Notes: generated by a model not told the origin, from the sequence alone. DNA of 64,000 nt from Mycoplasmatales bacterium (GCA_014238225.1 JABABL010000003.1:1692-65691); one strand, 5' to 3'; positions 27,630 to 43,412 are shown, counted from the stretch's first letter. Numbers and translations: made by a program.

Positions 27630-29744
27630 ATGAAAAGAAGGACAAAAAGACTTACACAAGCAATCTTAGGAATTGGAGCATTAAGCACCGGTGCTGCAGT
27701 TACAACAGTTGCACAAGCTTGTAATTTAGATGATCTTATCGGAACAGTCGATAACGAAACTTTAGAATCAGCATTCGCAAACGTCTTAAACACAATGCAC
27801 AGTTACAACGGTTCCTTTTCTAACAATGATATATCGTGAAATGACCCAGTCAGTAAAATAATTCTTAATACAACAATGCAATCACTAACTTCATTCTTAT
27901 CCGATACCGTTGCGCAAAGAGATGTACACGTTGTAGACATTAAAGCATTTAGTTTCGACTATAGTATTGATACAGAAAACGAATTCACTGCGGAAATATC
28001 TAACATAAACGGTTCTGCACTATTAAGTGATGACAGAGTTGTATCAATTGTACCGGACGGTAATGCAAGCGTTTCAATACTTAACTTATCGCCAGAAAAT
28101 TATAGAAATGCTTCTATTCAATGGTCGGGAATAAAATTTGACATTGAAAACCCTCGTGATCCAAGTAACGGAGGAGACACTCCAATAAACCCAGTGGATC
28201 CCACGGATCCAGGAGAATTCGATAGTGCTAAAGATGTATTTTTTAATGCTGTTAGCGAATTAACAAATTATACTTCTGGAAAACAAATCAGCGATAATTC
28301 CAGAGCAATACTGAACTCCTTCGGGAATTACAGTTATAAATCGATAACTGAACTTAATTTTTCTTTTGTTATCAGAGAAGAAGTAAACGCCAAGGAAGCA
28401 GACACTTTTTATGCTGAAATTCTTGACTTTTCAGGAGTGGTTGTAACTTACAATAATCAATCTGTTAATGTGGTGTCCACTTCCACTGCTGGTATTGGTA
28501 TAGCTGGGTACAGTTCTAGTAATTTCTGAGGAGCTGGGTGATATGGAATTATTGAGGGTGGAGAAGCGCCAAACGATACTGCTCCACTACCTGAAAACCC
28601 CGCATTAGTCAACAACCCTTACAATCCTGCTAACGGCCAAATGCCAATCAGTGCAACAAAATGAGGCACTGGCTTTGCTCCATTTTACGATACCGCAGCT
28701 TGACAAAGTGAATGGGGATATAAGGACGCTTGAATGGGTCAAGGAATTACCAATCCACTAGCTTTTACTCAAGCGACAGGTTTGAAAAGTTTTACTACTG
28801 CCTTTATACAACAAGATGGACAAGTTAGTGACCGTATACACGGCTCATTGGCTGGTTTAGATAATGATCAAACTGAAGCAGGAATGGACTTTTTCGAAAA
28901 CGCAAAAGGATATATGGATTATATAAAAGAGAATGACGGACATATAACGCTATCGTTTGGTGGCGCTGGAGGAAGCCCTATTTGAACATTCGCTGCAGAA
29001 CACGGCTTTAGTCAAGCTGATTTAAACGCAGAAATGAATAGAATTATTGATTTATATGATGTGGATGCTTTAGATTTTGACATAGAAGGCGCACATGCTA
29101 ATCCAGAATTTCCAGGAGTTGAAGAAGGAATTAAAATGCTAGCAAATTCTCTTGTTGAAATAAGAAACAAAAAGCCAAACATGAAAATAAGTATGACGTT
29201 ACCTGTCCTTGGTCGTGGACCAAATGGAAACGACAAAGAAACATTATGAGTTACTGGACTACAAGCAGCTAACGGGTTAGGGTGAGTTGATGTATTTATG
29301 GATAAACTTGGGCCAACCTTTATCACTAATGCCATGAGCATGGATGGTGGAGACCTAGGTTTTGCTTACTATTCAAATATGGAAGATGGCGGTGCACAAT
29401 TTGTTATTGACAGTATTGCTGGAGATGGCAACGGAGATAATGGTGTTAAAAACCAAGTTAAAGCTTCCGCTGCAAAATATGGTTACACTCTTACTGAAGC
29501 TCAAGCTTGAGCATTAACAGGCGTAACACCTATGATTGGACAAAACGACACCTTACCTCAAAGACTTTATCCTGATGGATGAAGAAAAGTTGTTCAATTT
29601 GCTAAAGATAAAAATATGGGAATGCTTTCTTATTGAGCAGGGGAAAGGGACCACTACACTGGCAGCACCGGTCCATATAATAACATCGGTATTGAAGGAA
29701 CAAAGCCTTTCGAATACATGGCAATTGCTATGGGCATAGCATAG
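27630..29744 (+). CDS. Surface lipoprotein: two family-type N-terminal modules fused to a GH18 chitinase / endo-beta-N-acetylglucosaminidase-like catalytic domain (704 aa)
   Basis: AAAGGAG RBS; MKRRTKRLTQAILGIGALSTGAAVTTVAQAC-NLDD lipobox. Five track ORFs are in one frame joined by TGA. GH18 catalytic motif D-A-L-D-F-D-I-E at 29064-29087; also ITLSFGGAGG, GVTPMIGQND and LSYWAGERD. TAG stop at 29742-29744. Confidence 0.85.
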
Positions 29745-29826: not shown

Positions 29827-31758
29827 TTAAGTGGTTATTACAGCTTGGCAACCCTGAACATCTCCAGGAGAAGAGGCATTACTACCACTAAATACAACTG
29901 TAATGCCGTTCATGGATGGACCTCGATCACCACTAAGGGTGTACGGATTAGATTGTCCACCATTTTCGGTAGCGTCACCCATGATATTAGGGAAAAGAAC
30001 TGTGTAGGACCCATTAGTTCGAGTGACATCAAAAATTGTAAGAGCATTATAGGATCAATCCAAAACAGTAATATTAACTCCGCCTGCAGGAGCCGCAACA
30101 AATCCCGCAGCAATTGCATTAGCAGCGGCCAGTATTCTTGGATTATCTAATATTGAACCAATATTAAACTCTCTTATACCACGATTATTCATGTCATCTA
30201 TAAGTCCCGAGAGAACAGTTGATTCTGGCATAAGCCTACCTAAGTTTGAAGACGCCAGTTCTACTTGAAAAATACCGCCGTTTTCAGTAATTCGTAATAT
30301 TATTTCTGCATTAATAACTCTAATGTCTCTACCATTTAAGGCTTGTCCAATGACCACAGAAGGGCCTCTTGCAGTTATAGCAACATTTCAGGTTGTTGCA
30401 TTCAGTTCTGTAATATCTGAAACAGAAGCAACATTAAATGCATTGTTTTCAATTCTACCAAAGGTGAAATTTTCTGAACCATTGTTTGTTGCAGTCCCTA
30501 ATCTTTCTATTATTAAAGTACTTAAGGGAGATGGACTACTGGTATTTGAAGTATAACCATTAAGACTGTTAACAGCGATAACTATCACACCTATTTCTGC
30601 TGATGTTTGATTTAGTCCAGTAACACCGTTGGGGGCAATTATCAGCATGCCAGTGCTACTATCAATTGTGATTGCAATATTAGCCATCCCACTAACATTA
30701 ACAAGATCTCCTGTTGCGGTTCCTGTTGCGTTCGTTCTAACAACAATTCCGGCTTGAGGATCGATGGAAATGTTTGACGATGTAATCATCGTAAAAGTTA
30801 ACGATTCCAGTGTTCCGTTTAGAACACTATTTATGGAAGCTAAAAAATCCATTCCCAGTTCTGTAGTAGGGTTTGAACCAGCCGCATAATTACTTAACTC
30901 ATTTATCCCATTAATGATGGTTTGCTCCACCGACACAGGTGAAGTTAAAGTAGTCGTTCCAACAGTGAATTGTCTGTTTGTTTCTGTAAGAGTAAACGAC
31001 ACATTATCAAAAGAAGTTGATATATCACCATTGGATGATGTTCCTAATATTCCCACATTTGAAATAGCAACAACATATCTGTTGTCGCCGGGTGTAATTG
31101 AACTAGTTGTAATGTTTGAAAAAACAAGGGAGTTTAATGTAAAACCAGTTGGTAAAGCAATCTCAATAGACGATAGAACGGCTTGAGCAATTATATTTGA
31201 AATTATTGTTTCACCTGTGTAAGTTGAAAGAACATTCACACCATTAACAATTGTTTCCTCGACATTATTAGCGGTTATCTGAGTAGCTGTTCCCGCCGAC
31301 AATGATCCATTGACAACATTAATCACAAGAGTCAAGGAACCAGTTATTGTATAAAAGTCATCCTGATTATCACTAAGAACCCCTGTTCCCATCAGAGGTA
31401 GATTAGACAATGTATAAGAAGCTCCACCAGTGTCTTGAGAAACGAGAGTAGATGTAGCCGCAATTGAACCAAGGGTTTCGACTGTAAATGTTGTACCAGA
31501 TGGGGAATTTAAAGGAAGTAAAGAAGTATTTAATGAACTCAACATTTCATTTGCTAGGGAATCAAGAACAGGAGATTGACCCATAGTAACATCATAATTA
31601 CTTAGTTGGTTAATGCTGTTTACAATACTTGTGATATCTTGCTGCACATTTCTTTGATCGGTTCCACCACATGTTTGAGCAATAGCTGCTATAGCTATGC
31701 CTCCAGCAACTGCCGAAGAGCCCAAAAGCGTGGTTATTTTTGTTTTATTCTTTTTCAT
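29827..31758 (-). CDS. Modular surface lipoprotein, family member (643 aa)
   Basis: MKKNKTKITTLLGSSAVAGGIAIAAIAQTC-GGTD. ORFs 30388..31758 and 30055..30357 plus the tail to TAA (29827-29829) are in one frame through TGA. Four modules open with IVNSINQLSNY, IVNGVNVLSTYTG, IINGINELSNYAAG and VIAVNSLNGYTSN. Confidence 0.8.
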
Positions 31759-31912
31759 TTTTTACCTAATTTCAAGACTATTCTATCAAATTACTTATGC
31801 GGATAATATTATATTGTGCTTCGGGAGGGGCAGAAACAATTCACTAAGGTAAGTTCCCAAATATTTGAAAGATAAAACACCATTTAGTTTTTTCTGTTGT
31901 TATAATTGGTTT

Positions 31913-32944
31913 ATGAATATAAAAACACTGTATGTTGTAGATACAAAAGACACAAATCCCTATACAAACTTAGCAATAGAGGAATATTTGGAGAAAACTT
32001 GCGTTAGCAAAACAAGCGTAATTCTAATGATTTGACAATCCAAAAAATCAGTTATTGTTGGGCATAGTCAGAATGTTATTACAGAAGTTGATGTTGTCAA
32101 GTGTCACAGGGACAATGTCAATATTGTACGCAGAAAAAGCGGAGGGGGAGCCGTTTACCAAGACGAAGGAAACTTAAATTTTTCCTTTATTTGATTTTGC
32201 GATAAATGCTCCATCGACAACACATATAACGTAGTTTTTGAAGCATTAAAAAACCTAGGATTGAGTACAGAAAAAATAAGTAAAAACGACATTTTGATCC
32301 ATCAAGGCGAAAGTGTTTTCAAAGTTTCTGGTAGTGCTTTCATTAGTAATTCTAAATTTTCATTGCATCACGGAACACTGCTTGTAGATTTGAACATTAA
32401 GGATGCTGAAAAGTACTTAACTCCTTCAGCTGAGAAATTAAGTTCAAAAGGGATAGACTCTATAAAACAAAGAATTACAAACATCAAAAATTTAATTCCT
32501 GACATTACAATAAAGAAAGTAAAAAAAGCTTTAATTAGTGCTGCAGAGACAGAATTTAAAGCGAAGGCAGAAGTTATTGAATCGCTAACGGAGACTAAAT
32601 TGCAGAAGATGCCTGAAGTCATGGAGTTAGAGAAACTTTACGAAAGCAAGGAATGGATTTATAGCAATCAAACATTGTTCCCGTTTAAAGAAACACACGT
32701 TTTTCCATGAGGAGAAGTAGAGATGAAGGTAATTATCGACAATAATTTTTTATCCAATGTTGGAATCACGGCAAATGTTAAAGATAAAGAATGAATTAGT
32801 AGAATATGTGCATTTATTCACAACAAAAAAACAAGACCTTCCGAATGACAAAAAATCATGTCTGAACTAGCCCAGGAACACCCCAAATATAAGAGAGAAT
32901 TTCTTGACGTAGGTAAGGTTTTCTTAAAGCCCTTTATTTTTTAA
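31913..32944 (+). CDS. lplA: Lipoate-protein ligase A (343 aa)
   Basis: MNIKTLYVVDTKDTNPYTNLAIEEYL... and RRKSGGGAVYQDEGNLNFSFI (compare E. coli RRSSGGGAVFHDLGN). In frame through several TGA. The 3' end overlaps lpd by 11 nt. Confidence 0.9.
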
Positions 32945-34370
32945 GTATTTTTGGAACATAATAGTCAGTAACAGTGCCCTCAGCAATTTCTGCCGATAAA
33001 GCAATTGTTTCGCTTAATGTAGGATGAGGATGCACAGTCATGGTTATGTCTTTGATGTGTGCTTTCATTTCGATTGCCAAAAGAATTTCAGAGATTAGAT
33101 CATCAGCGTGCTTGCCAACAATACCCCCACCAATTATATAGCCCTTTTCATCGAAAATTAGTTTAGTTTTCCCAAGAGCAGCCTCCGCAGTTAATGCCTT
33201 TCCAGATGCCATTCACGGAAGTTCGCCTTTTTGAAATTTAATTTTTTGCTCAACGCACTCCTGTTCAGTTAACCCTGCTCAAGCTATTTCAGGGGATGTG
33301 TATACAACTGATGGTATTATTCGCTCCTTATCACGAAAGACATTTTCGCCAGCAATTATTTCTGCAACAATTCTTCCTTCGTATGTTGATTTATGAGCCA
33401 GCATTGGATTTCCAATTATGTCGCCTATTGCGTAAATTTTTTCACAAGATGTTTGAAGTAATTCATTGGTGATAATGAACCCTCTCTCATCTACCCTGAC
33501 ACATGTTTTCTCTAAACTCAGGCGATCAGAGTTAGGAATTCTTCCTATTGAAACCACAATATTATCGAATTGTTCCTTAAATGTTTCTTTATTTTTAAGA
33601 TTTTCAAACTCCACAGTAAACTTCTTGTCTTTGCCCTTCATCGTTATTTCTTTAGTACCGTGTTCATAATAGATTTTCTTAAATCTGTCAGAATTAGCTT
33701 TCAAGAAAATATTCATTAAATCCTTGTCTACCATTGGTAGTAACCGGCTTGTTCTTTGCAAGATAGTAACTTCACTGCCTAGTGAACTATAAAATGTACC
33801 CATTTCTAAACCAATGACTCCACCCCCAATAATAAGCAACTTGCTGGGAATTCTTTCAACCTCTAAAGCCTCCGTAGAGTATCAAAATTTTAATGGAAGG
33901 TTTTCATCATCTGGCAGTTTTCTATTTCTTGAACCACAAGCTATGATACACTTGTCGTACTCAATTTTCATAACCCCTGTTTTAGTTTTTACCGTTACAG
34001 CAGCATCATTTAAAAATTCAGCTTCACCAATTATGTATTCTACTTTCCTTAAAGCCGCCATTTGTTTTAAACCTCCGGTCAACTTTTTTAGAATTTCTTG
34101 CTTTCATGCCACTAATTTCTTGGTATTTACTTTGAAAGTATCCTTTGTTTCTAACCCAAAAAGAGAAGCATGCTTAATTGTCTCTGCAGCTTCGGCTACA
34201 TGTAACAGAGCTTTTGAAGGTATACATCCCACATTTAAACAAACACCTCCAAGGGTTTCGTGTTTTTCCACAAGTGTTACATTTACACCCAAGTCGGCTG
34301 CTCTAAATGCCGCTGCATATCCCCCAGGTCCTCCACCGATGATTAATAACTGAACTTTTTTAGTTTCCAT
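32934..34370 (-). CDS. lpdA: Dihydrolipoyl dehydrogenase, E3 (478 aa)
   Basis: [24 protein letters not shown] fold and redox-active [10 protein letters not shown]. Four track ORFs are in one frame; the gaps were read and hold TGA only. Confidence 0.95.
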
Positions 34371-35809
34371 TATATTTTAATTATGTCTCCTGGTTTTTCC
34401 AGCATTGTTTTGACTTCTTCTAAAAACAATGACCCCTCTTTACCATCTATTAATCTGTGATCAAATGAAAGACTCAAAGGCATGGTTAACTTTATAGCTG
34501 GTTCCTTGTTTTTATCAACGATATAAGTATATTGTGCTTTACATAAACCCAATATACCAACATTCGGTCTATTCACTATCGGCGAAAAGTACTTTGTGGA
34601 TGTTCCACTAATGCTTGAAATTGTAAATGTTGAACCGCCCATTTCATCAGCGGAAAGTTTTCCCGCTTTTGCTTTTTCAGCTAAGTCAAAAATCTTTTCA
34701 CTTATTTCGTAGATTGTTAGTGATTTCGGTTCTACTATTGTTCCAACAACTAAACCATTAGGAGTGTCGATAGCTATTCCGATATTTGAAAAATTCTTAT
34801 AAATAACCTCGTTGCTTGCCATATCAATACTTGCGTTCATAGTTGGAAATTTTTGCAACGCAGCTGCAACAATTTTCACTGAAAAAGCTAAAAATGAAAT
34901 CTTTATATCTGGTTTAGATTTTTTTGCTTTCTTATACATACCAAAAATATCATCAATGTAAGAATCTTGATACATTGCTACATGAGGCACTTCTGCTGAC
35001 GCTTTTGCTAAAAATTTTGCAGAAAATTGCTTTATTTTGGAAAGTTTTTTTCGTTCTATTGTTCCGTATTTAGTAAATAGAGAATCAGGCAAAGGTTTTT
35101 CAGTTGGTTCAGCTACTGCATTGCCAGATTTAGACAGATGTTTTTCGATGTAATTTTTTGCAATCATTGTGTCAATTCTTCCAGTAGATGTTCGTTCTTT
35201 AATGTCAGCAGGATCAATATCGAAAGTCGTTATTAAGAATTTAGCGGCAGCTGTTGCGTATATTTTTAATTCTTTTAATTTTTTAATTTTGATAGCATGA
35301 CGAACCACTAATGCGGCTTGAGATTTTTTTAGAAGTTTATTTATTTCAGGTTTAAAATAATTTCGTTGTAGTGTTTTCTCTTCAGAAAGCGAAGACATTT
35401 CATCTTCTACTTCCTTTACCATTTCTTGAAAAGAAGAAGTTCCGCCCACTCCTTTTACAGTGGACATTACCTGTTCATTCTCATCTGGTTCATCATCTTT
35501 TACTTGTTCATCTGTAGCTTCTTTTTCTTTTGCAATTTTCACTTGCATGGAGGAGACATCTGTTTTTTCACTTTTTTCTGCTGCAGCTTCGTACTCTAAT
35601 AGATCCTCGCCCTCGACTATTTCATCGCCTGCTTCTTTTAGTATTTTGGTCACTTTTCCATCAAAATCAGCAGGTATATCCATGGTAGATTTCGCACTTT
35701 CCAATACAGTTAAAGCTTGACCATTAGTGACTAAGTCGCCTTCTTTTACTAACAACTCAGATATTTTTATTTCAACATCGGCACCGATTACTGGTATTTT
35801 AAATTTCAT
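34370..35809 (-). CDS. aceF: Dihydrolipoamide acetyltransferase E2, single lipoyl domain, AceF-like (479 aa)
   Basis: Lipoyl domain [25 protein letters not shown]...[11 protein letters not shown]; subunit-binding segment ([28 protein letters not shown]); catalytic [12 protein letters not shown]. The start overlaps the E1 stop region. Confidence 0.9.
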
Positions 35810-38548
35810 TTAACACTCCATAGGATTTTTTTTGTCATGCAATTTTAATCCGTTTTTCTTTATAAATTCTTCTAGTTTATCTTTATATTGCGAGTCTTTT
35901 TTTGACATTGCGTATAAAGCTACATAAGCGATAGTGTATCTATCCACTTCAAAAAATGTCCTCAAGTCAGCTCTAGAGCCACTACGACCAAGACCATCTG
36001 TTCCCAACACATAGTAATCATTAGAAATGTGCTGACGTATTTGTTCAGCATTTGACTTTATATAGTCAGAAGCTGCAACAATGGGGTTGTCGTTATCAAG
36101 CATGATTTCTACATGACTTTTCATCTTAGTATCATTGTTATAAATTCTCTGACGTGTTACCTCTTCACAATTTTTTCTTAACTCACCATATGATGTTGCA
36201 ATGTATATTTTTGAATCAATATTATATTGTGATCTCAAAATTTGTCCTGCAGCAATAACCTCAAGAGTAATGGTTCCAGAACCCACCAAATTAACAGAGC
36301 CGGTTGAATGGTTTGCAAACATGGACCTATACACGTATAAACCTTTTAAGATATTCTCCTCTGACCCAGATAGTAGAGGAGGATGTAAATGATTTTCATT
36401 CATAACAGTCATATAATAAAAATTACAGTTATTGTTTTCGTACATGTCTTTTAATCCTTGATACATTATAATTGCGACTTCGTAACCAAAAGTTGGATCA
36501 TATGTTTTGCAACCAGGAACGTAACTTCACATAACTAGATTGTGACCATCTTCGTGTTGTAAACCCTCACCATTCAAAGTAGTTCGACCAGCAGTTCCTC
36601 CAATTACAAAGCCCTTTGCTTTTGAATCCGCAGATGCTCAAACTAAATCACCAAATCTTTGAAACCCAAAAATCGAATAATAAATAAAAAAAGGTATAGC
36701 TGTAAACTCATGGTGAACGTAAGATGTAGCAGCAGTTAGCCACATTGCCATAGCGCCTGTCTCATTAATTCCCATTTGAAAAAATTGCCCTTGTTTTGAT
36801 ACACGATACTGTAACAGGGAACCAGCATCGTTAGGTGTATAGTTTTGTCCGCCAGGATCAAAAATCCCTATTTTATTAAACAAAGGCTCAATACCAAAAG
36901 TTCTGGCTTCATCCGTTGTTACAACAATTAACCGATCCTTTAAAATTGGATCATTAAAAAGAGTTGTTAGACACATCCCAAAAATCATGGTGGTTGATAA
37001 CTCACGGTTTTCAGAACCATGTACTATTACTGATAATTTTTCATAAAACTTGTTTATGTGCAATGTTTCAGGTTTGTATCTTCTGTTAGGAATAGGGCCA
37101 TTCAGTTTTTCTCTTTGGCTCATCATAAATTTATATTCATCAGACTTCTTTTCAAATTTTACATAAGGCAGTCTGTCGCCAGCAAGGTCTTTTTCAACCA
37201 ACCCGATATCCAACTTATTAGCGAAGTTTACCAACTGTTGTTTAGAAAGTTTTTTTTGACTGTGAGAAGAGTAAGATGCCCTTATTTTTGAATCAAAACC
37301 AGAGCCCTTTATTGTTCTTGCTAATATTGCAGTCGGACGATCTTTAATTCTAGAAGGGTTTAGGGCTCTATGATAAGATGCATAGACCACTTCTACAGAG
37401 TTACCTCCATAATATAGTTTTTCGCCATAATTAACATCTTCTGCTCAATCATTGATACCAAGAGTTTCTTTTAGGTGAGGAAGATATTCATCAAACAGTG
37501 CTCTTACAAATCCACATGGTTGTGACTCCAACCTAATCAAATCCCCATCCGTTAAATTTTCCAATACTTCTGCCACCGCACGATTATTACGCATATCCAG
37601 AAGAATTTCTAAAGGAAAATCTCAGGCAGCTTTAATAACTCTTCAACCATATCCAGAAAATATTCTTTCTAACTCGAAAACGATATTTCCGTTTCCATAT
37701 ACTGGTCCGTCTAGACCCAAAAGATTACAATTTACAATAAAAATTAAATTGTTCAAATTATACCTATATGCTAACCTCGCTAATCCAAACGACTCAGGCT
37801 CTTCCATTTCAGCATCCCCCAAAAACACTCAAACATGGCGATCAGGATTTTTTTCCACAAACCCCTTACATTCCAAGTATCTGATTCATAATGCTTGGGC
37901 AACGCCTTGCATTGCACCAAGACCAAGGGAAACCGTTGGAAATTGTCAGTATTCAGGCATTAAATGAGGATGAGGATAAGAAGATAGACCTTTGACAAAA
38001 ACTTCATTTCTAAAATTATTCAAGTCATCTTCAGTTAATATACCTTCCAAAAACGACCTTGCATAAATTCCAGGAGAACTGTGTCCCTGAAAATATATAA
38101 AATCAGATTTTGTCTTATCGTTATTCCCTTTTCAAAAATAATCAAAACCTACCTCGTATAAACTAGAAATTGACTCGAAAGTAGATAAGTGTCCTCCAAT
38201 ACCAGGAATGGATTTACCCGCATTTAAAACCATCGCTACAGCATTTCATCTAGTGTAATTTCTTATTCTTCTTACCAACCACGACTCTGTGAAATCCATT
38301 TTAGCGGCAGTTTGATAACTAAAGTTATTAAAAATTGGAAAACGAGCACTCAACATAAGTATATTGGGGAATATCGCTTTTTGAGGTAAAAGTATCGTTA
38401 TTAAATAATCAATGAATTTTTCTGAGTCTTCGTCTCCGTGAATACCAAAAAAATCCATTAAGTAATCAGTAATTTCTTGAAGTTCAGGGAAAGTTTTTTC
38501 TATATTGCCTTTATAAAACCACTCGTTTGTTAAATCTGTATATAGCAT
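35810..38548 (-). CDS. aceE: Pyruvate dehydrogenase E1, single-polypeptide (homodimeric AceE) type (912 aa)
   Basis: ORFs 35810..36466, 36638..37390, 37643..37828 and 38246..38602 are in one frame. All gaps were read codon by codon and hold TGA only. Motifs [33 protein letters not shown] and [12 protein letters not shown] parallel E. coli AceE. ATG 38548 is preferred over the track's TTG 38602. Confidence 0.9.
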
Positions 38549-38668
38549 CTCTACTCTACTGTAATAATACAGTAAAATGCAACAATGGAATTGAGAAAGC
38601 AAAAGAAAAAATTTAGGTATTAAATTATTTTTTTTTCTTGTATAGTAGAAATAATAAAAAGGAGCAAA

Positions 38669-38929
38669 ATGAAACTAACACCTTTAAACAATAATGTTTT
38701 GATGAAAGAAGAAGAACGTCAAACAAAGACATCAAGCGGGATAATCGTTTCTGCGCAATCAGAGGTAGAAAAAAACCAAGGTCGTGTGATAGAAATAGGG
38801 AAAGACGTTAAGGATGTCGTAATTGGAGATGTCGTGGTATTTGAAAGCTACAAAGCAACTGACTTTGAATTTAGTAGTGAAAGATACATGATTGTTGAAG
38901 AAAAAGACATTTTAGCAAAATTTAAATAA
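38669..38929 (+). CDS. groES: Co-chaperonin GroES (86 aa)
   Basis: AAAGGAG RBS; MKLTPLNNNVLMKEEERQTKTSSGIIV...GDVVVFESY. Located 10 nt upstream of groEL. Confidence 0.95.
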   Translation: MKLTPLNNNVLMKEEERQTKTSSGIIVSAQSEVEKNQGRVIEIGKDVKDVVIGDVVVFESYKATDFEFSSERYMIVEEKDILAKFK

Positions 38930-38938
38930 GGAGAAAAA

Positions 38939-40567
38939 ATGGGAGCAAAACAATTATTGTTTAACACAGAAGCAAGAAAAAAACTAAAAGCAGGCATTGA
39001 CAAATTAAGCGACGCAGTTAAGAAAACCCTAGGGCCAAATGGAAAGTATGTGGTAATTCAGAGAGAATACGGCTCTCCACTAATCACAAACGACGGAGTT
39101 GCGGTAGCAAAAGAAATAACACTAGAAGACCCAACAGAAAACATAGGAGCAAGCTTAATTCAGCAAGTTTCTAATAAAACGGATGATGATGTAGGAGATG
39201 GCACTACAACTGCAACGGTTATTGCACAAGCTATCGTTGAAGAAGGATTAAAACTTGCAGAAGCAGGAAGAAACTCCATCTTAATCAAAAGTGGCTTATT
39301 AAAAGCCAAAGACGAAGTAATAAAAAACTTGGAAAAATTATCTACACCTGTAAACAACGATCAGGCTATTAAATCAATAGCGTCCATTTCAGCAAAAGAC
39401 CCTGAGATTGGTGATTTAATTCAAAAAGCAATTAAAAAAGTCGGCGAAGCAGGAATGATAACAATAGAGGAAGGCAATTCCTACAACACAACTGTAGATA
39501 TTGTGGAAGGTATGCATTTTGAAGAGGGATTTTCTTCACCATACATGATGACCAACAAATCTAGCATGATGGCTGTTCATAACTCCCCTAAAATACTAGT
39601 TACTGATAAAAAAATCAATAACCTACAAGAAATACTACCTATTTTAGAGCAAGTAGTAAAGGAAGGAAATCCGTTACTAATTATTGCTTCTGAATTTAGT
39701 GAGGAAGTCTTGACCACCCTTATTTTAAATAAAATGCAGGGCACTTTTCAAATTACAACGGTGAAAGCACCGAGCTTTGGAGACGATAAAATAGGACAAC
39801 TTGAAGATATTGCTATTTTCACATCCGCTAAATTCTTTAGTGAAAAAGTTAATCACTCGTTAAAGGATGCAAAAATAGAAGACCTTGGTAGCGCAGAAAA
39901 AGTGGAAGTTTCTAAAAACAGAACAATAATTATTGGTGGTAAAGAAACTCAAAAAAATATCAAAGCTAGAGTAGAAGAACTTAAACATCTGATTGATAAA
40001 TCTGATTCAACCTATTCAAAGGATCAATACAGGAGTCGCATTGCTAAGATGGCTGGGGGAATTGGAGTTATTCGTGTTGGCGCTAATACAGAAGTTGAAT
40101 TAAAAGAAAAGAAAATGCGCATCGAAGACGCTTTAAAATCAACATACGCAGCCATCGAAGAGGGAATAGTTGTTGGTGGAGGAATTGCGCTTATGAAAGC
40201 TAGTATGAATATTCAACCTAAAGCAGAATCACATGAGGACATCAAAATAGGATATACCATTTTAAAGGAAGCACTGAAACAACCTCTAAAACTAATCGCA
40301 GATAATTCTGGCGTTAGTGGAGAAGTCGTTCTTAGTAAAATCCTAGAAATGAAATGCACCAAAGGTTTCAACGCTGTTTCCGGTGAATATAGTGATTTAG
40401 AAAAAGACGGAGTTATTGACCCGTTGAAAGTATCAAAAAATGCTTTAGCTAATGCAGTAAGCGTCGCATCATTAATCTTAACTACAGAAGTATCAGTTAC
40501 TGAAATTCCTAAAGCAAATGATGAACCAACAATGCCACCGATGGGTGGCATGCCTGGAATGATGTAA
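38939..40567 (+). CDS. groEL: Chaperonin GroEL (542 aa)
   Basis: Uninterrupted ORF with LGPNGKYVVI, DGTTTATVIAQAIV, a GGG/VVGGG segment and the C-terminal PPMGGMPGMM tail. Confidence 0.98.
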   Translation: MGAKQLLFNTEARKKLKAGIDKLSDAVKKTLGPNGKYVVIQREYGSPLITNDGVAVAKEITLEDPTENIGASLIQQVSNKTDDDVGDGTTTATVIAQAIVEEGLKLAEAGRNSILIKSGLLKAKDEVIKNLEKLSTPVNNDQAIKSIASISAKDPEIGDLIQKAIKKVGEAGMITIEEGNSYNTTVDIVEGMHFEEGFSSPYMMTNKSSMMAVHNSPKILVTDKKINNLQEILPILEQVVKEGNPLLIIASEFSEEVLTTLILNKMQGTFQITTVKAPSFGDDKIGQLEDIAIFTSAKFFSEKVNHSLKDAKIEDLGSAEKVEVSKNRTIIIGGKETQKNIKARVEELKHLIDKSDSTYSKDQYRSRIAKMAGGIGVIRVGANTEVELKEKKMRIEDALKSTYAAIEEGIVVGGGIALMKASMNIQPKAESHEDIKIGYTILKEALKQPLKLIADNSGVSGEVVLSKILEMKCTKGFNAVSGEYSDLEKDGVIDPLKVSKNALANAVSVASLILTTEVSVTEIPKANDEPTMPPMGGMPGMM

Positions 40568-40667: not shown

Positions 40668-43412
40668 ATGAGAAAAAACAGTAAGAAAAAAGTCATAAGT
40701 ATTTTTGCCACTACAGCAGTAGGAGGAGCAGGAATTGTTGCCGCAGTTGCACAAAGTTGCGGACCTAGTTTTAACAATAGAAACAACACTCAAGAAGTTC
40801 TTTCTCGATTAAATAATACAGGATCAATGGCAGGTAATAATGGAACGACCAATATACCTGCTACAGGGACTCAAGAAAGATTATTCTATGATTTAATAGA
40901 AACAACACTCCAGGGACTCAATAATAACGAAAACCCTAACCTTGCGATAACTAGAATAGTTACACAAGTCCCAAATGTTAATATTGATGCGACTGCTGAT
41001 GGCACAAGCGTTACTTTTAGTCCTGAATCATTAATTATCAACGTGAGCAATACAACTAACAATTCTTTTCAATTTTTGAATACAGGGATTCTTACAATTT
41101 CTGGAATTGTTTATTCAGGGAGGGTCATCACATCAGCTGGGACGATTAACGATAATGGGTTAGTACTATCCAATACAACTGAAGCTATAAAAGTAGTTAG
41201 AAATTTAAACTCCATTACTAACATTAATCTTCCAGCCGAAGGAACAAGCGAGTTTTTTGTATACCAATTTTTACAAACCACAATTCGCACAATTGTTGGG
41301 AACGAAAACTCCTTAATAACCAACATTTCTGTAGTTCCATCAAGTGTTTCTAGTACAACGCAGGAAGATGCCACAACAGCCGTTCACATTGATAACGGTG
41401 GCATAACAATTTCCACATCCGGAGGGGCAGACTCAAGGTTTTCTCCTATTGGAAGCGGAACAAATATTTTTGGTATAGTTTTTTCTCCCACCGACAACAA
41501 TAATTCAATCGCAATCACTACGATTAGTTCTTTAACTAATTTAATTGCTGTGTCCGATAATGAAATTATTGTTGATGCTGCTTCTGGGTTGTCAACAATA
41601 AACAACGGAATATTTCCAGACCCAGGTACGAACACAAGAGTTTTATTTGATTCGATTTCTACTCTATTTGATTTAGAGATTGGAACTGGCATATCAGCAA
41701 TATCAGTTGCTCCGCTCCCTACAAATGTTTTTTACAGTGAAAATTCTTCTTCACTAAGAATTTCGCCTACAGCACTATTAATTGAGGCAGAAGATAACGG
41801 AAGGCAATACAACAGCATTAATGAAATAATTATCTCTAATATTGTTGTTAGAGAAGGACAACTGGTCAGTGCAGGCACGGCTACCATTGCTAACGGAGGA
41901 ACATTTTCATTTGCTCAGAATTCCTTTATTCCCTTTTTAGAACTTGGTAAGATAGCATTTCTAAGCCCAGGGGAGGCTCCCCCTCAAAATTCTGGGGAGT
42001 CGGCAATCTATAACGCTATTCTTTCTCACATTCAAACAATAGACTCCAACGCAGATATAGTTTCTATAGGAATTAACGGGATACCTTCTAGCCTCTCAGC
42101 AACAGAAATTACTCTTGATTCTAACCAAATAACCGTTAGAACAACAGGCGGGAGCACTAACTTTTTTAGAAATGTTGGGATTTTTTCTATAAGCAACATT
42201 GTTATTACGGACGGAGTTATAACCGATGGAGGTACCGCGACAGGATTGTCGGCCGATGCAAATAGTTCTCTAGTAATGGAGTCCTTTTTAGATTTAAATT
42301 CAAGAACGCAGTTCAACGCGCCAGATGAGTCATCCAACACATATAGAATGTGACAAGCGATTGAAGATGTAATAGGTAATGAATACAGAATTCTTACAGT
42401 TCAAATATTCGCAACAAATCAATCGTTGTTTTTGATTGACCCGGAAACCAACGCATTAACTATATTGCAGTCCAACATCTTTTTAGTTGTGGCAGAAGAA
42501 ATAGAAGGAAGTGAAACTAAACAATTCTTTAATTTTAATTCTCCCATGAACACAGGAAACAATCGTTCATTAACTTCTTTTGAAAACATTAATATACAAA
42601 ACAACAACATACAAGAAGGGGTAACCGTTTCTAATTTAACCGAAACACCTAATAATATAGAACAAATACAAATATATGAAGCATTACAAACCTTGAACAA
42701 TTACAACGCTTCCACTTCAAATGTTTTTGGAATAGCAAGCATTATTTTGAATGAGTTAAATAGTACATTAATTTCAAACACAACATTTCAAAGCTTTTCA
42801 TTTGACAGCGTTAATTTGGAAAATGTTGTTTCTTCTATGACTACACCAGAATCTTATACAATCAGCGGAATTAATTTAAACTCTGGAGTCGACTCACTAG
42901 GCGGAAGTGTAACAGGGGCTTTTGACTTAAATATTACATTTAATTCCACGCCAGATGTTGTCGCCACGTCTACTTTTGTTCAAAGCAGTTCTGCTGATGT
43001 GGAGGCTTTAATCGGAGGAGATGGGAATAATGACAATGTAAATAGTTTTCTTAATTATAACGTTGGATCACCGTTTACTGCGGATTCGGTTGCTGGCGAA
43101 TTGGTAACATCAATAAATCAATTTGTAAGCACAGATGCTAGAGTAAATAACTCTAATGCAGTAGTCAGAGTTATAAACGTGCAGAATTCTTTTGCAATTT
43201 CTACTTCCAACATCACAACAGAGTCAAACGAATATACAATTACAATTGGAGCGTCCTCAGGACTTATGATTCTTGTTGAAGACAGTACTACATCTACGGA
43301 CATCGGCACTTTTTCTCTTGATTTTGAGCTGATTATTACAATAACTAATCCAAGCACCACTCCTTTAATTTCTGCTAGCAACTTTAATGTACTAACTTAT
43401 ACTAGTGTATAA
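40668..43412 (+). CDS. Large modular surface lipoprotein, family member (914 aa)
   Basis: MRKNSKKKVISIFATTAVGGAGIVAAVAQSC-GPSF. ORFs 40668..42353 and 42426..43412 are in one frame; the gap I read has a single TGA. Repeated modules end in ISGIVYSGRVITSAGT, ISNIVVREGQLVSAGTA and ISNIVITDGVITDGGTA. Confidence 0.8.

Follow-up and report, generated by a model that had tools for sequence, protein, structure and literature searches.

INTRODUCTION

Mollicutes are models of minimal metabolism, and the pyruvate dehydrogenase (PDH) complex is among their few energy-yielding modules; in several mycoplasmas, PDH subunits also moonlight as surface adhesins. Two described designs of the complex are relevant here. 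In mollicutes and other Bacilli, the pdhABCD genes encode a PDH whose E1 component is an alpha/beta heterotetramer. In the aceE-aceF-lpd type of Escherichia coli and Legionella, E1 is a single chain, and the AceF-type E2 of E. coli forms a 24-mer core. Here, we analyze a 64,000-nucleotide (nt) stretch of DNA from a Mycoplasmatales bacterium (hereafter, the window), in which the block at positions 31913-40567, read under genetic code 4 (TGA = Trp), holds an aceE-aceF-lpd operon beside lplA and groES-groEL. A preliminary description of this sequence had raised the possibility that these genes were an ancient acquisition.

We propose, with a probability of roughly 85%, that lpd, the E2 gene, and aceE encode a complete, apparently functional AceE/AceF/Lpd PDH, which was acquired as a unit by an old horizontal transfer from outside the Bacilli, most likely from Pseudomonadota. 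In this proposal, the operon has since been recoded, is the sole PDH of its host, and stands in for PdhABCD, and the adjoining groES-groEL genes are native.

The window lies within an 89.6-kb contig of a 680-kb genome (60 contigs, 88% complete). The genus to which this genome belongs has two known species, which together form a family of their own in Mycoplasmatales and have been recovered solely in metagenome bins. The lineage is deep, as its UvrA identity to the other families of the order does not exceed 61%.

RESULTS

The window carries a complete aceE-aceF-lpd operon

The features of the block are as follows.

31913-32944, + strand: lplA, lipoate-protein ligase (343 amino acids from ATG; assigned by profile matches)
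32934-34370, - strand: lpd, dihydrolipoyl dehydrogenase (E3), third gene of the operon (478 amino acids)
34370-35809, - strand: AceF-type dihydrolipoyl acetyltransferase (E2), middle gene of the operon (479 amino acids)
35810-38548, - strand: aceE, homodimeric-type pyruvate dehydrogenase E1, first gene of the operon (912 amino acids from ATG)
38549-38668, no strand: divergent intergenic spacer between aceE and groES (120 bp, read from the sequence)
38669-38929, + strand: groES (86 amino acids; Cpn10)
38939-40567, + strand: groEL (542 amino acids; TIGR02348)

The aceE and E2 genes meet at a TAAATG junction and the E2 and lpd genes at TAATG, and therefore aceE, the E2 gene, and lpd form one tightly coupled operon. 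The gene identities that we observe agree with the earlier account of an aceE-aceF-lpd order with a 912-residue AceE and a convergent lplA, for which gene calls and Pfam/NCBIfam matches concur, and the AceE-like and AceF-like peptide motifs quoted there are all present.

AceE passes the NCBIfam equivalog model TIGR00759 (920 bits against a cut-off of 860), and its 912 residues carry the Pfam domains PF00456, PF17831 (267 bits), and PF22613. It thus has the architecture that defines membership, i.e., a single chain of about 890 residues with a transketolase-like N-terminal domain, a PDH_E1_M middle domain, and a transketolase-like C-terminal domain. Residues 91-909 match the E. coli AceE in PDB with 712 bits, and an alignment with the E. 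coli and Legionella proteins shows that GGHLSTFES, QHEDGH (with the active-site His), and a segment ending in VNCNL, which corresponds to the ThDP/Mg-binding motif GDG-X(~26)-NCN with Ala as its third residue, are kept.

The E2 is built of one lipoyl domain, a long charged (acidic) linker, a diverged subunit-binding domain, and a catalytic domain. The lipoyl domain (PF00364, 57 bits, residues 2-70) is present in a single copy, as opposed to three in E. coli, and its lipoyl Lys aligns with the Lys of the E. coli DKA motif. A further segment aligns with the subunit-binding domain of the E. coli and Legionella proteins, though it is much diverged. The catalytic domain (PF00198, 2-oxoacid_dh, 216 bits) contains SFDHRLIDG, and the TISS segment is kept. 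The best NCBIfam models for this protein are the AceF-type TIGR01348 and PRK11854; it scores below both equivalog cut-offs (280 against 552 and 265 against 722, respectively), as expected of a one-lipoyl, diverged protein. Lpd passes TIGR01350 (464 bits against a cut-off of 409), with its redox disulfide CLNVGC and its C-terminal His-Glu motif HPHPTLSE both intact.

All three subunits group with proteobacterial homologs

The closest matches to AceE outside the genus, in a search of 5.8 billion proteins, are 41-46% identical, with none above 46%. Those that carry a name are all proteobacterial (Neisseria, Marinimicrobium, Legionella, Coxiellaceae, Halomonas, SAR86, Pelagibacteraceae, and Rhodobacterales). 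In the maximum likelihood tree (built, as all trees here, under LG+C20 with posterior mean site frequencies), the genus falls inside a 29-row group (support 97/88), the rest of which consists of named proteobacterial PDH-E1 sequences and unlabeled cluster representatives. The Streptomyces AceE clade and the MdeB paralog fall outside this group, and a forced grouping of AceE with the Streptomyces-type clade is rejected by the approximately unbiased (AU) test (p = 0.017). Thus, of the proteobacterial or actinobacterial design suggested in the preliminary description, the trees favor the proteobacterial part and disfavor the actinobacterial one. When 50%-cluster representatives are included, the genus joins a Coxiellaceae sequence and four unlabeled long-branch representatives (98/98). 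A cluster look-up gave a taxon for 1 of 10 AceE representatives, namely "Pseudomonadota bacterium."

The other two subunits behave alike. The top 120 database matches to E2 are proteobacterial AceF proteins (251-275 bits), as opposed to at most 135 bits for mollicute PdhC. In the tree of the E2 catalytic part, the genus groups with 23 proteobacterial AceF sequences (100/99), with 32 mollicute PdhC apart. Lpd has 44-49% identity to proteobacterial Lpd proteins whose genes immediately follow aceE-aceF, as opposed to 35-37% for mollicute PdhD; its tree unites the genus with proteobacterial Lpd (100/100) and places all other Mycoplasmatales separately (100/100).

The trees of AceE, AceF, and Lpd thus all place the genus with proteobacterial homologs. 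Together with the restriction of AceE to this genus among the sampled genomes (see below), this bears out the suggestion that the PDH is foreign to its lineage. From these sequence comparisons, we infer the direction of the transfer and a donor of "Pseudomonadota-type," the source being most likely a member of the Pseudomonadota. The branch is very long and allows no closer placement than this.

Among sampled genomes, AceE is confined to one genus, and searches for PdhA and PdhB were negative

Genomes in which the AceE model is passed number 2 of 399 sampled across the order, both of this genus, and 0 of the 297 high-quality ones. In the sample across class Bacilli, the model is passed in 1 of 399 genomes, the window's own. 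An AceE-type E1 is therefore not the rule in this clade. Of 199 genomes of the order, 121 have PdhA (PF00676), with 28 of 46 genera represented, but neither of the two genomes of this genus does. A profile search of the 88%-complete host genome gave no PF00676 match over the cut-off. PdhB was likewise not found there, as the matches to PF02779 (Transket_pyr) are two DXS-like genes and tkt (C33:82961-84946) only. With mollicute PdhA, PdhB, PdhC, and PdhD as tblastn queries, only the E2 and Lpd of the window were matched in the host genome. Profile hidden Markov models and tblastn therefore agree that neither PdhA nor PdhB is found beside the AceE-type enzyme. We note that the two DXS-like (1-deoxy-D-xylulose-5-phosphate synthase) paralogs, in a genome of 680 kb, lie at C33:3-1703 (- strand), just left of the window, and at C44:26385-28283 (+ strand).

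We found no report of AceE in mollicutes in the literature searched (aceE with Mycoplasma or Mollicutes). A paper on oyster Mollicutes deals with a different metagenome-assembled genome (MAG), which has Mycoplasma-like PDH subunits (PMC8125052). The novelty lies in the host, in the exchange of the entire complex, and in the recoding; the enzyme itself is of a standard kind, an ordinary enzyme in an unexpected host.

The operon is an old resident of its genome

The gene order is identical in the sister species, the AceE of which is 92% identical (tblastn match). In addition, two independent assemblies show the identical locus, one of them at 124.7-145.4 kb of a 196-kb scaffold, i.e., in a mid-contig position.

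The genes are written in the code of the host. We counted 10 in-frame TGA codons in aceE, 4 in lpd, and 5 in lplA, three genes for which the preliminary description had already noted such codons without counts; the E2 gene, groES, and groEL have none. TGA encodes 10 of the 13 Trp residues of AceE and all 4 of Lpd, compared with 87% genome-wide. Six of the 10 TGA codons of aceE stand at Trp columns that are conserved in at least 32 of 35 homologs, and therefore aceE is readable only in the host's code. Measured against the genes of the genome, the operon deviates by no more than 1.2 standard deviations in G+C content and in third-position G+C, and its distance to the genome in codon usage is unremarkable, at the 35th-78th percentile of long genes. 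By all three measures, G+C, codon use, and TGA = Trp, amelioration of the operon is complete, as the earlier claim of an old transfer had it. The transfer took place before the split of the two species of the genus and after the separation of their family from the others sampled.

Separately, fragments of a second HSP70 gene without TGA were seen on three tiny contigs of the assembly (C27:5-700, C43:6-530, and C31:6-287). These may be foreign, either from the host of the bacterium or from a contaminant.

The complex looks functional and central to pyruvate metabolism

All three subunits are observed to keep their catalytic motifs, so that the complex, as judged from its sequence, is apparently functional. 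The host genome encodes pta, ackA, pfk, pyk, and a NOX-like flavoprotein. No lactate dehydrogenase (LDH) domain (PF02866) was found in this 88%-complete genome, and there may be no fermentative exit from pyruvate besides PDH. With pta-ackA present and LDH not found, PDH appears central to the metabolism of the cell. The operon appears to be the only PDH of the genome and the main exit from pyruvate, with ATP gained via acetate.

The reaction sequence predicted for the complex is that of a standard PDH. The E1 homodimer would decarboxylate pyruvate, and the single-lipoyl E2, lipoylated by the adjoining LplA with scavenged lipoate, would form acetyl-CoA. E3 would then reoxidize the lipoamide with formation of NADH, and acetyl-CoA would be converted through Pta-AckA to acetate and ATP. 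Because an AceE-type E1 and an AceF-type E2 are a co-adapted pair, the three subunits would have had to arrive together.

GroEL groups with mollicute homologs

The operon stands back to back with groES-groEL across the 120-bp spacer. GroEL passes TIGR02348 (659 bits against a cut-off of 582), and GroES matches Cpn10 (PF00166, 70.9 bits) as well as the NCBIfam GroES models, the latter under their cut-offs. GroEL is present in 25 of 200 genomes of the order; the divergent arrangement, the length of the spacer at 38549-38668, and the patchy occurrence of the pair in Mollicutes are all as first described.

The top database matches to GroEL (46-52% identity) are Firmicutes mixed with Bacteroidota, not Proteobacteria. 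In its tree, GroEL joins the GroEL of another Mycoplasmatales family (G006) and a protein from a 541-kb contig (100/99), and then groups with most other mollicute GroELs (97/94), with the aceE-linked gammaproteobacterial GroELs elsewhere. Its identity is 43-45% to these aceE-linked proteins and 46-51% to the nearest mollicute ones (families f6 and f15). The preliminary description had included groES-groEL in the putative acquisition; the GroEL tree runs counter to this part of the proposal, as the affinity is with mollicutes. The two genes look native, a neighbor of the acquisition and not a part of it, with the caution that the sequences are fast-evolving and AT-rich.

Several observations concern groEL elsewhere. 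The GroEL of genus g21 of family f5 (L159-L161) is placed among non-mollicute sequences and apart from every other mollicute GroEL. Lateral acquisition of GroEL has reportedly been proposed for the Mycoplasma penetrans group (by Clark and Tillier in 2010), and the g21 placement fits this proposal. Some MAGs of marine Gammaproteobacteria (L070, L074, L082, and L092) carry groEL roughly 5 kb downstream of aceE-aceF. The GroEL of the window does not group with that of these MAGs, and therefore the shared adjacency of groEL and aceEF looks coincidental.

The Mycoplasmatales family G005 carries a native PDH in the co-directional cluster nox-pdhA-pdhB-pdhC-pdhD-lplA-pfk-pyk-groES-groEL (C1:585500-600500). 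The combination of PDH, lplA, and groESL is therefore not unique to the window. As a lead, this comparison suggests that the lplA/PDH/groESL neighborhood of the window may be old and that the foreign operon may have been inserted into place.

groES-groEL lies outside the predicted HrcA regulon

The reported absence of the CIRCE element (controlling inverted repeat of chaperone expression) upstream of groES was reproduced, as scans of the 120-bp spacer found neither the canonical element nor the local variant described below. The canonical element, TTAGCACTC-N9-GAGTGCTAA, is absent genome-wide at up to 2 mismatches per arm. A genome search for hrcA, made together with that for pdhA and pdhB, which were not found, showed that hrcA is present. 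Variant CIRCE-like tandem repeats, TTAGCAATA-N8-TATTGCTAA and TTAACAATC-N8-GATTGCTAA, occur only at C59:23249-23319, outside the window, where they sit upstream of clpB-hrcA-(grpE)-dnaK. These look like a lineage-specific variant of the HrcA operator with an 8-nt spacer. Since the variant is found only at clpB-hrcA-dnaK, groESL would therefore lie outside the CIRCE/HrcA regulon.

lplA, the spacer, and the genes bordering the block

lplA is convergent with lpd, overlapping its 3' end by 11 nt. An alternative TTG start at 31865 would give a protein of 359 amino acids; the independent assemblies have the 343-residue call. LplA matches the Pfam domains LplA-B_cat (167 bits) and Lip_prot_lig_C (24 bits) and scores slightly below the TIGR00545 cut-off (272 against 280 bits). 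It matches E. coli LplA in PDB with 150 bits and mollicute LplA with at most 139 bits (30-41% identity). As the protein is about equally close to both, its origin may be of either kind.

On the other side of the operon, the spacer holds an AAGGAG ribosome-binding site that precedes groES and a 6-bp inverted repeat, ACTGTA-N4-TACAGT, that adjoins the aceE start; a promoter scan showed no excess over chance (30 matches compared with 33.7 expected). The two genes of the chaperonin pair are separated by 9 nt.

The block is bordered on both sides by large open reading frames, at 29827-31758 (- strand, 643 amino acids) and 40668-43412 (+ strand, 914 amino acids). Both have lipoprotein-like N-termini, are kept in the sister species, and gave no Pfam or NCBIfam match. 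A GH18-like open reading frame of 704 amino acids lies at 27630-29744.

DISCUSSION

Our results are best explained by the horizontal acquisition of a whole PDH operon, and the most serious competitor concerns the order of events rather than the transfer itself. It is possible, with odds below even, that pdhABCD was lost first and that pyruvate oxidation was later restored by the foreign operon, the two complexes never having coexisted. Loss is indeed common, as PdhA is missing from 78 of 199 genomes of the order (about 40%), and no pdh remnant is detectable in the host genome. However, lplA, which is useful only with a lipoylated complex, is kept beside the operon, PdhA-bearing families occur throughout the order, including those closest by UvrA identity, and a PDH-lplA-groESL neighborhood with native pdhABCD is seen in another family, which may point to replacement at an ancient locus. 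These points do not decide the matter, and we put forward displacement, as opposed to regain after loss, as a lead. It seems improbable that the complex is not a PDH at all and acts on another 2-oxo acid, as do the paralogs MdeB and "AKGDH_not_PDH." The match of E1 to TIGR03186 is strong (798 bits) and the sequence highly diverged, but this score is far under the cut-off of 1408, the AceE equivalog model is passed, and MdeB and its representative form a separate clade (99/97). In addition, pta-ackA and glycolysis genes are present, and no other route from pyruvate was found.

Slightly less probable still is a single foreign island that brought in both groES-groEL and the PDH operon. Such an island is suggested by the back-to-back operons with their 120-bp spacer, by the patchiness of GroEL (25 of 200 genomes), by the marine Gammaproteobacteria with groEL about 5 kb from aceEF, and by the g21 GroEL that branches away from other mollicutes. 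The GroEL tree leads us to reject this co-transfer, given its grouping with mollicutes at 100/99 and 97/94, and both the identities (43-45% to aceE-linked gammaproteobacterial GroEL versus 46-51% to the nearest mollicute) and the Firmicutes and Bacteroidota top matches, in place of Proteobacteria, point the same way. Vertical inheritance would make the AceE-type PDH ancestral in this lineage and lost or replaced elsewhere in Mycoplasmatales and Bacilli. The depth of the lineage (UvrA at most 61%) and the very long AceE branch would suit such a history. It is nevertheless very unlikely, because the 397 other genomes of the order and the 398 others of the class yielded no further AceE, E1, E2, and E3 each group with proteobacterial sequences while the other mollicute E2 and E3 form clades of their own, and many independent losses would be required. 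Finally, the source is a 60-contig MAG with tiny contigs (C27, C31, and C43) that are possibly foreign, so that a proteobacterial contaminant or a chimeric join in the bin must be considered. We regard this as scarcely credible. TGA codons occur in aceE, lpd, and lplA, six of them at conserved Trp positions in aceE, and permit a code 4 reading only; G+C and codon use match the host; and the same locus is seen again in the sister species and in two independent assemblies, one of which has it in the middle of a 196-kb scaffold. Contamination is rejected on these three grounds.

Several observations weigh against the acquisition of a functional PDH from Pseudomonadota as the sole complex of its kind. 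On the side of function, the thiamine diphosphate motif of AceE reads GDA instead of GDG, with Ala as the third residue; the lipoylation motif of E2 is AKS instead of DKA; and Pfam gives no match to PF02817 in E2 at E <= 0.001, the subunit-binding domain being much diverged. On the side of origin, the AceE stem branch is 2.3-3.6 substitutions per site long, the placement of AceE becomes a polytomy once the unlabeled long-branch representatives are dropped, and the link to Coxiellaceae may reflect long-branch or compositional attraction. A position of AceE as sister to all sampled proteobacterial AceE survives the AU test (p = 0.119). The trees of E2 and Lpd were sampled from Proteobacteria and mollicutes only and, taken alone, would indicate "not mollicute-type," short of "proteobacterial and nothing else." On the side of absence, the host genome is 88% complete in 60 contigs and that of the sister species 77% complete, so that the absence of pdhAB and ldh is not strictly proven.

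The acquisition of the operon may be set in a wider frame, which we hold to be somewhat better than an even bet. The locus would represent the first AceE/AceF/Lpd PDH in Mollicutes and in the sampled Bacilli, and a swap of the whole complex that displaced pdhABCD at an old lplA/PDH/groESL locus of a marine-type, host-associated mycoplasma. Recoded to TGA = Trp, it would be the only route there from pyruvate to ATP-yielding acetyl-CoA. If true, this would be a clean natural case in which a central multi-enzyme complex had all its co-adapted subunits replaced at once, over the boundaries of phylum and genetic code. More generally, the case indicates that a foreign and architecturally different version can take the place of a core multi-subunit complex as a whole, and that a TGA = Trp genome can take up genes from a standard-code donor, which are then recoded. 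For annotation, the practical consequence is that pipelines and metabolic models built to seek pdhABCD would wrongly count pyruvate oxidation as missing in lineages of this kind.

We close with the comparison to known systems. Like the pdhABCD complex of mollicutes and other Bacilli, the PDH of the window would convert pyruvate to acetyl-CoA that feeds Pta-AckA, and it has lplA nearby; it differs in that PdhA and PdhB were not found and in that its E2 and E3 fall outside the mollicute clades. As with the native pdhABCD of family G005, the operon is near groES-groEL. Unlike the apparently laterally acquired mollicute GroEL of genus g21, the GroEL of the window goes with the other mollicutes and looks native. 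Compared with the aceE-aceF-lpd type of E. coli and Legionella, the present system differs in its code-4 mollicute host, its AceE identity of 41-46%, its GDA and AKS motifs, its long acidic linker, its subunit-binding domain beyond the reach of Pfam, the lack of a gene for a PdhR-type regulator, and the convergent lplA at its 3' end. It shares with this type the single-chain E1 of about 900 residues, the E1-E2-E3 order with coupled junctions, and the catalytic motifs. With Legionella adelaidensis, in particular, it has in common a short, single-lipoyl E2 and an lpd gene that follows directly after.

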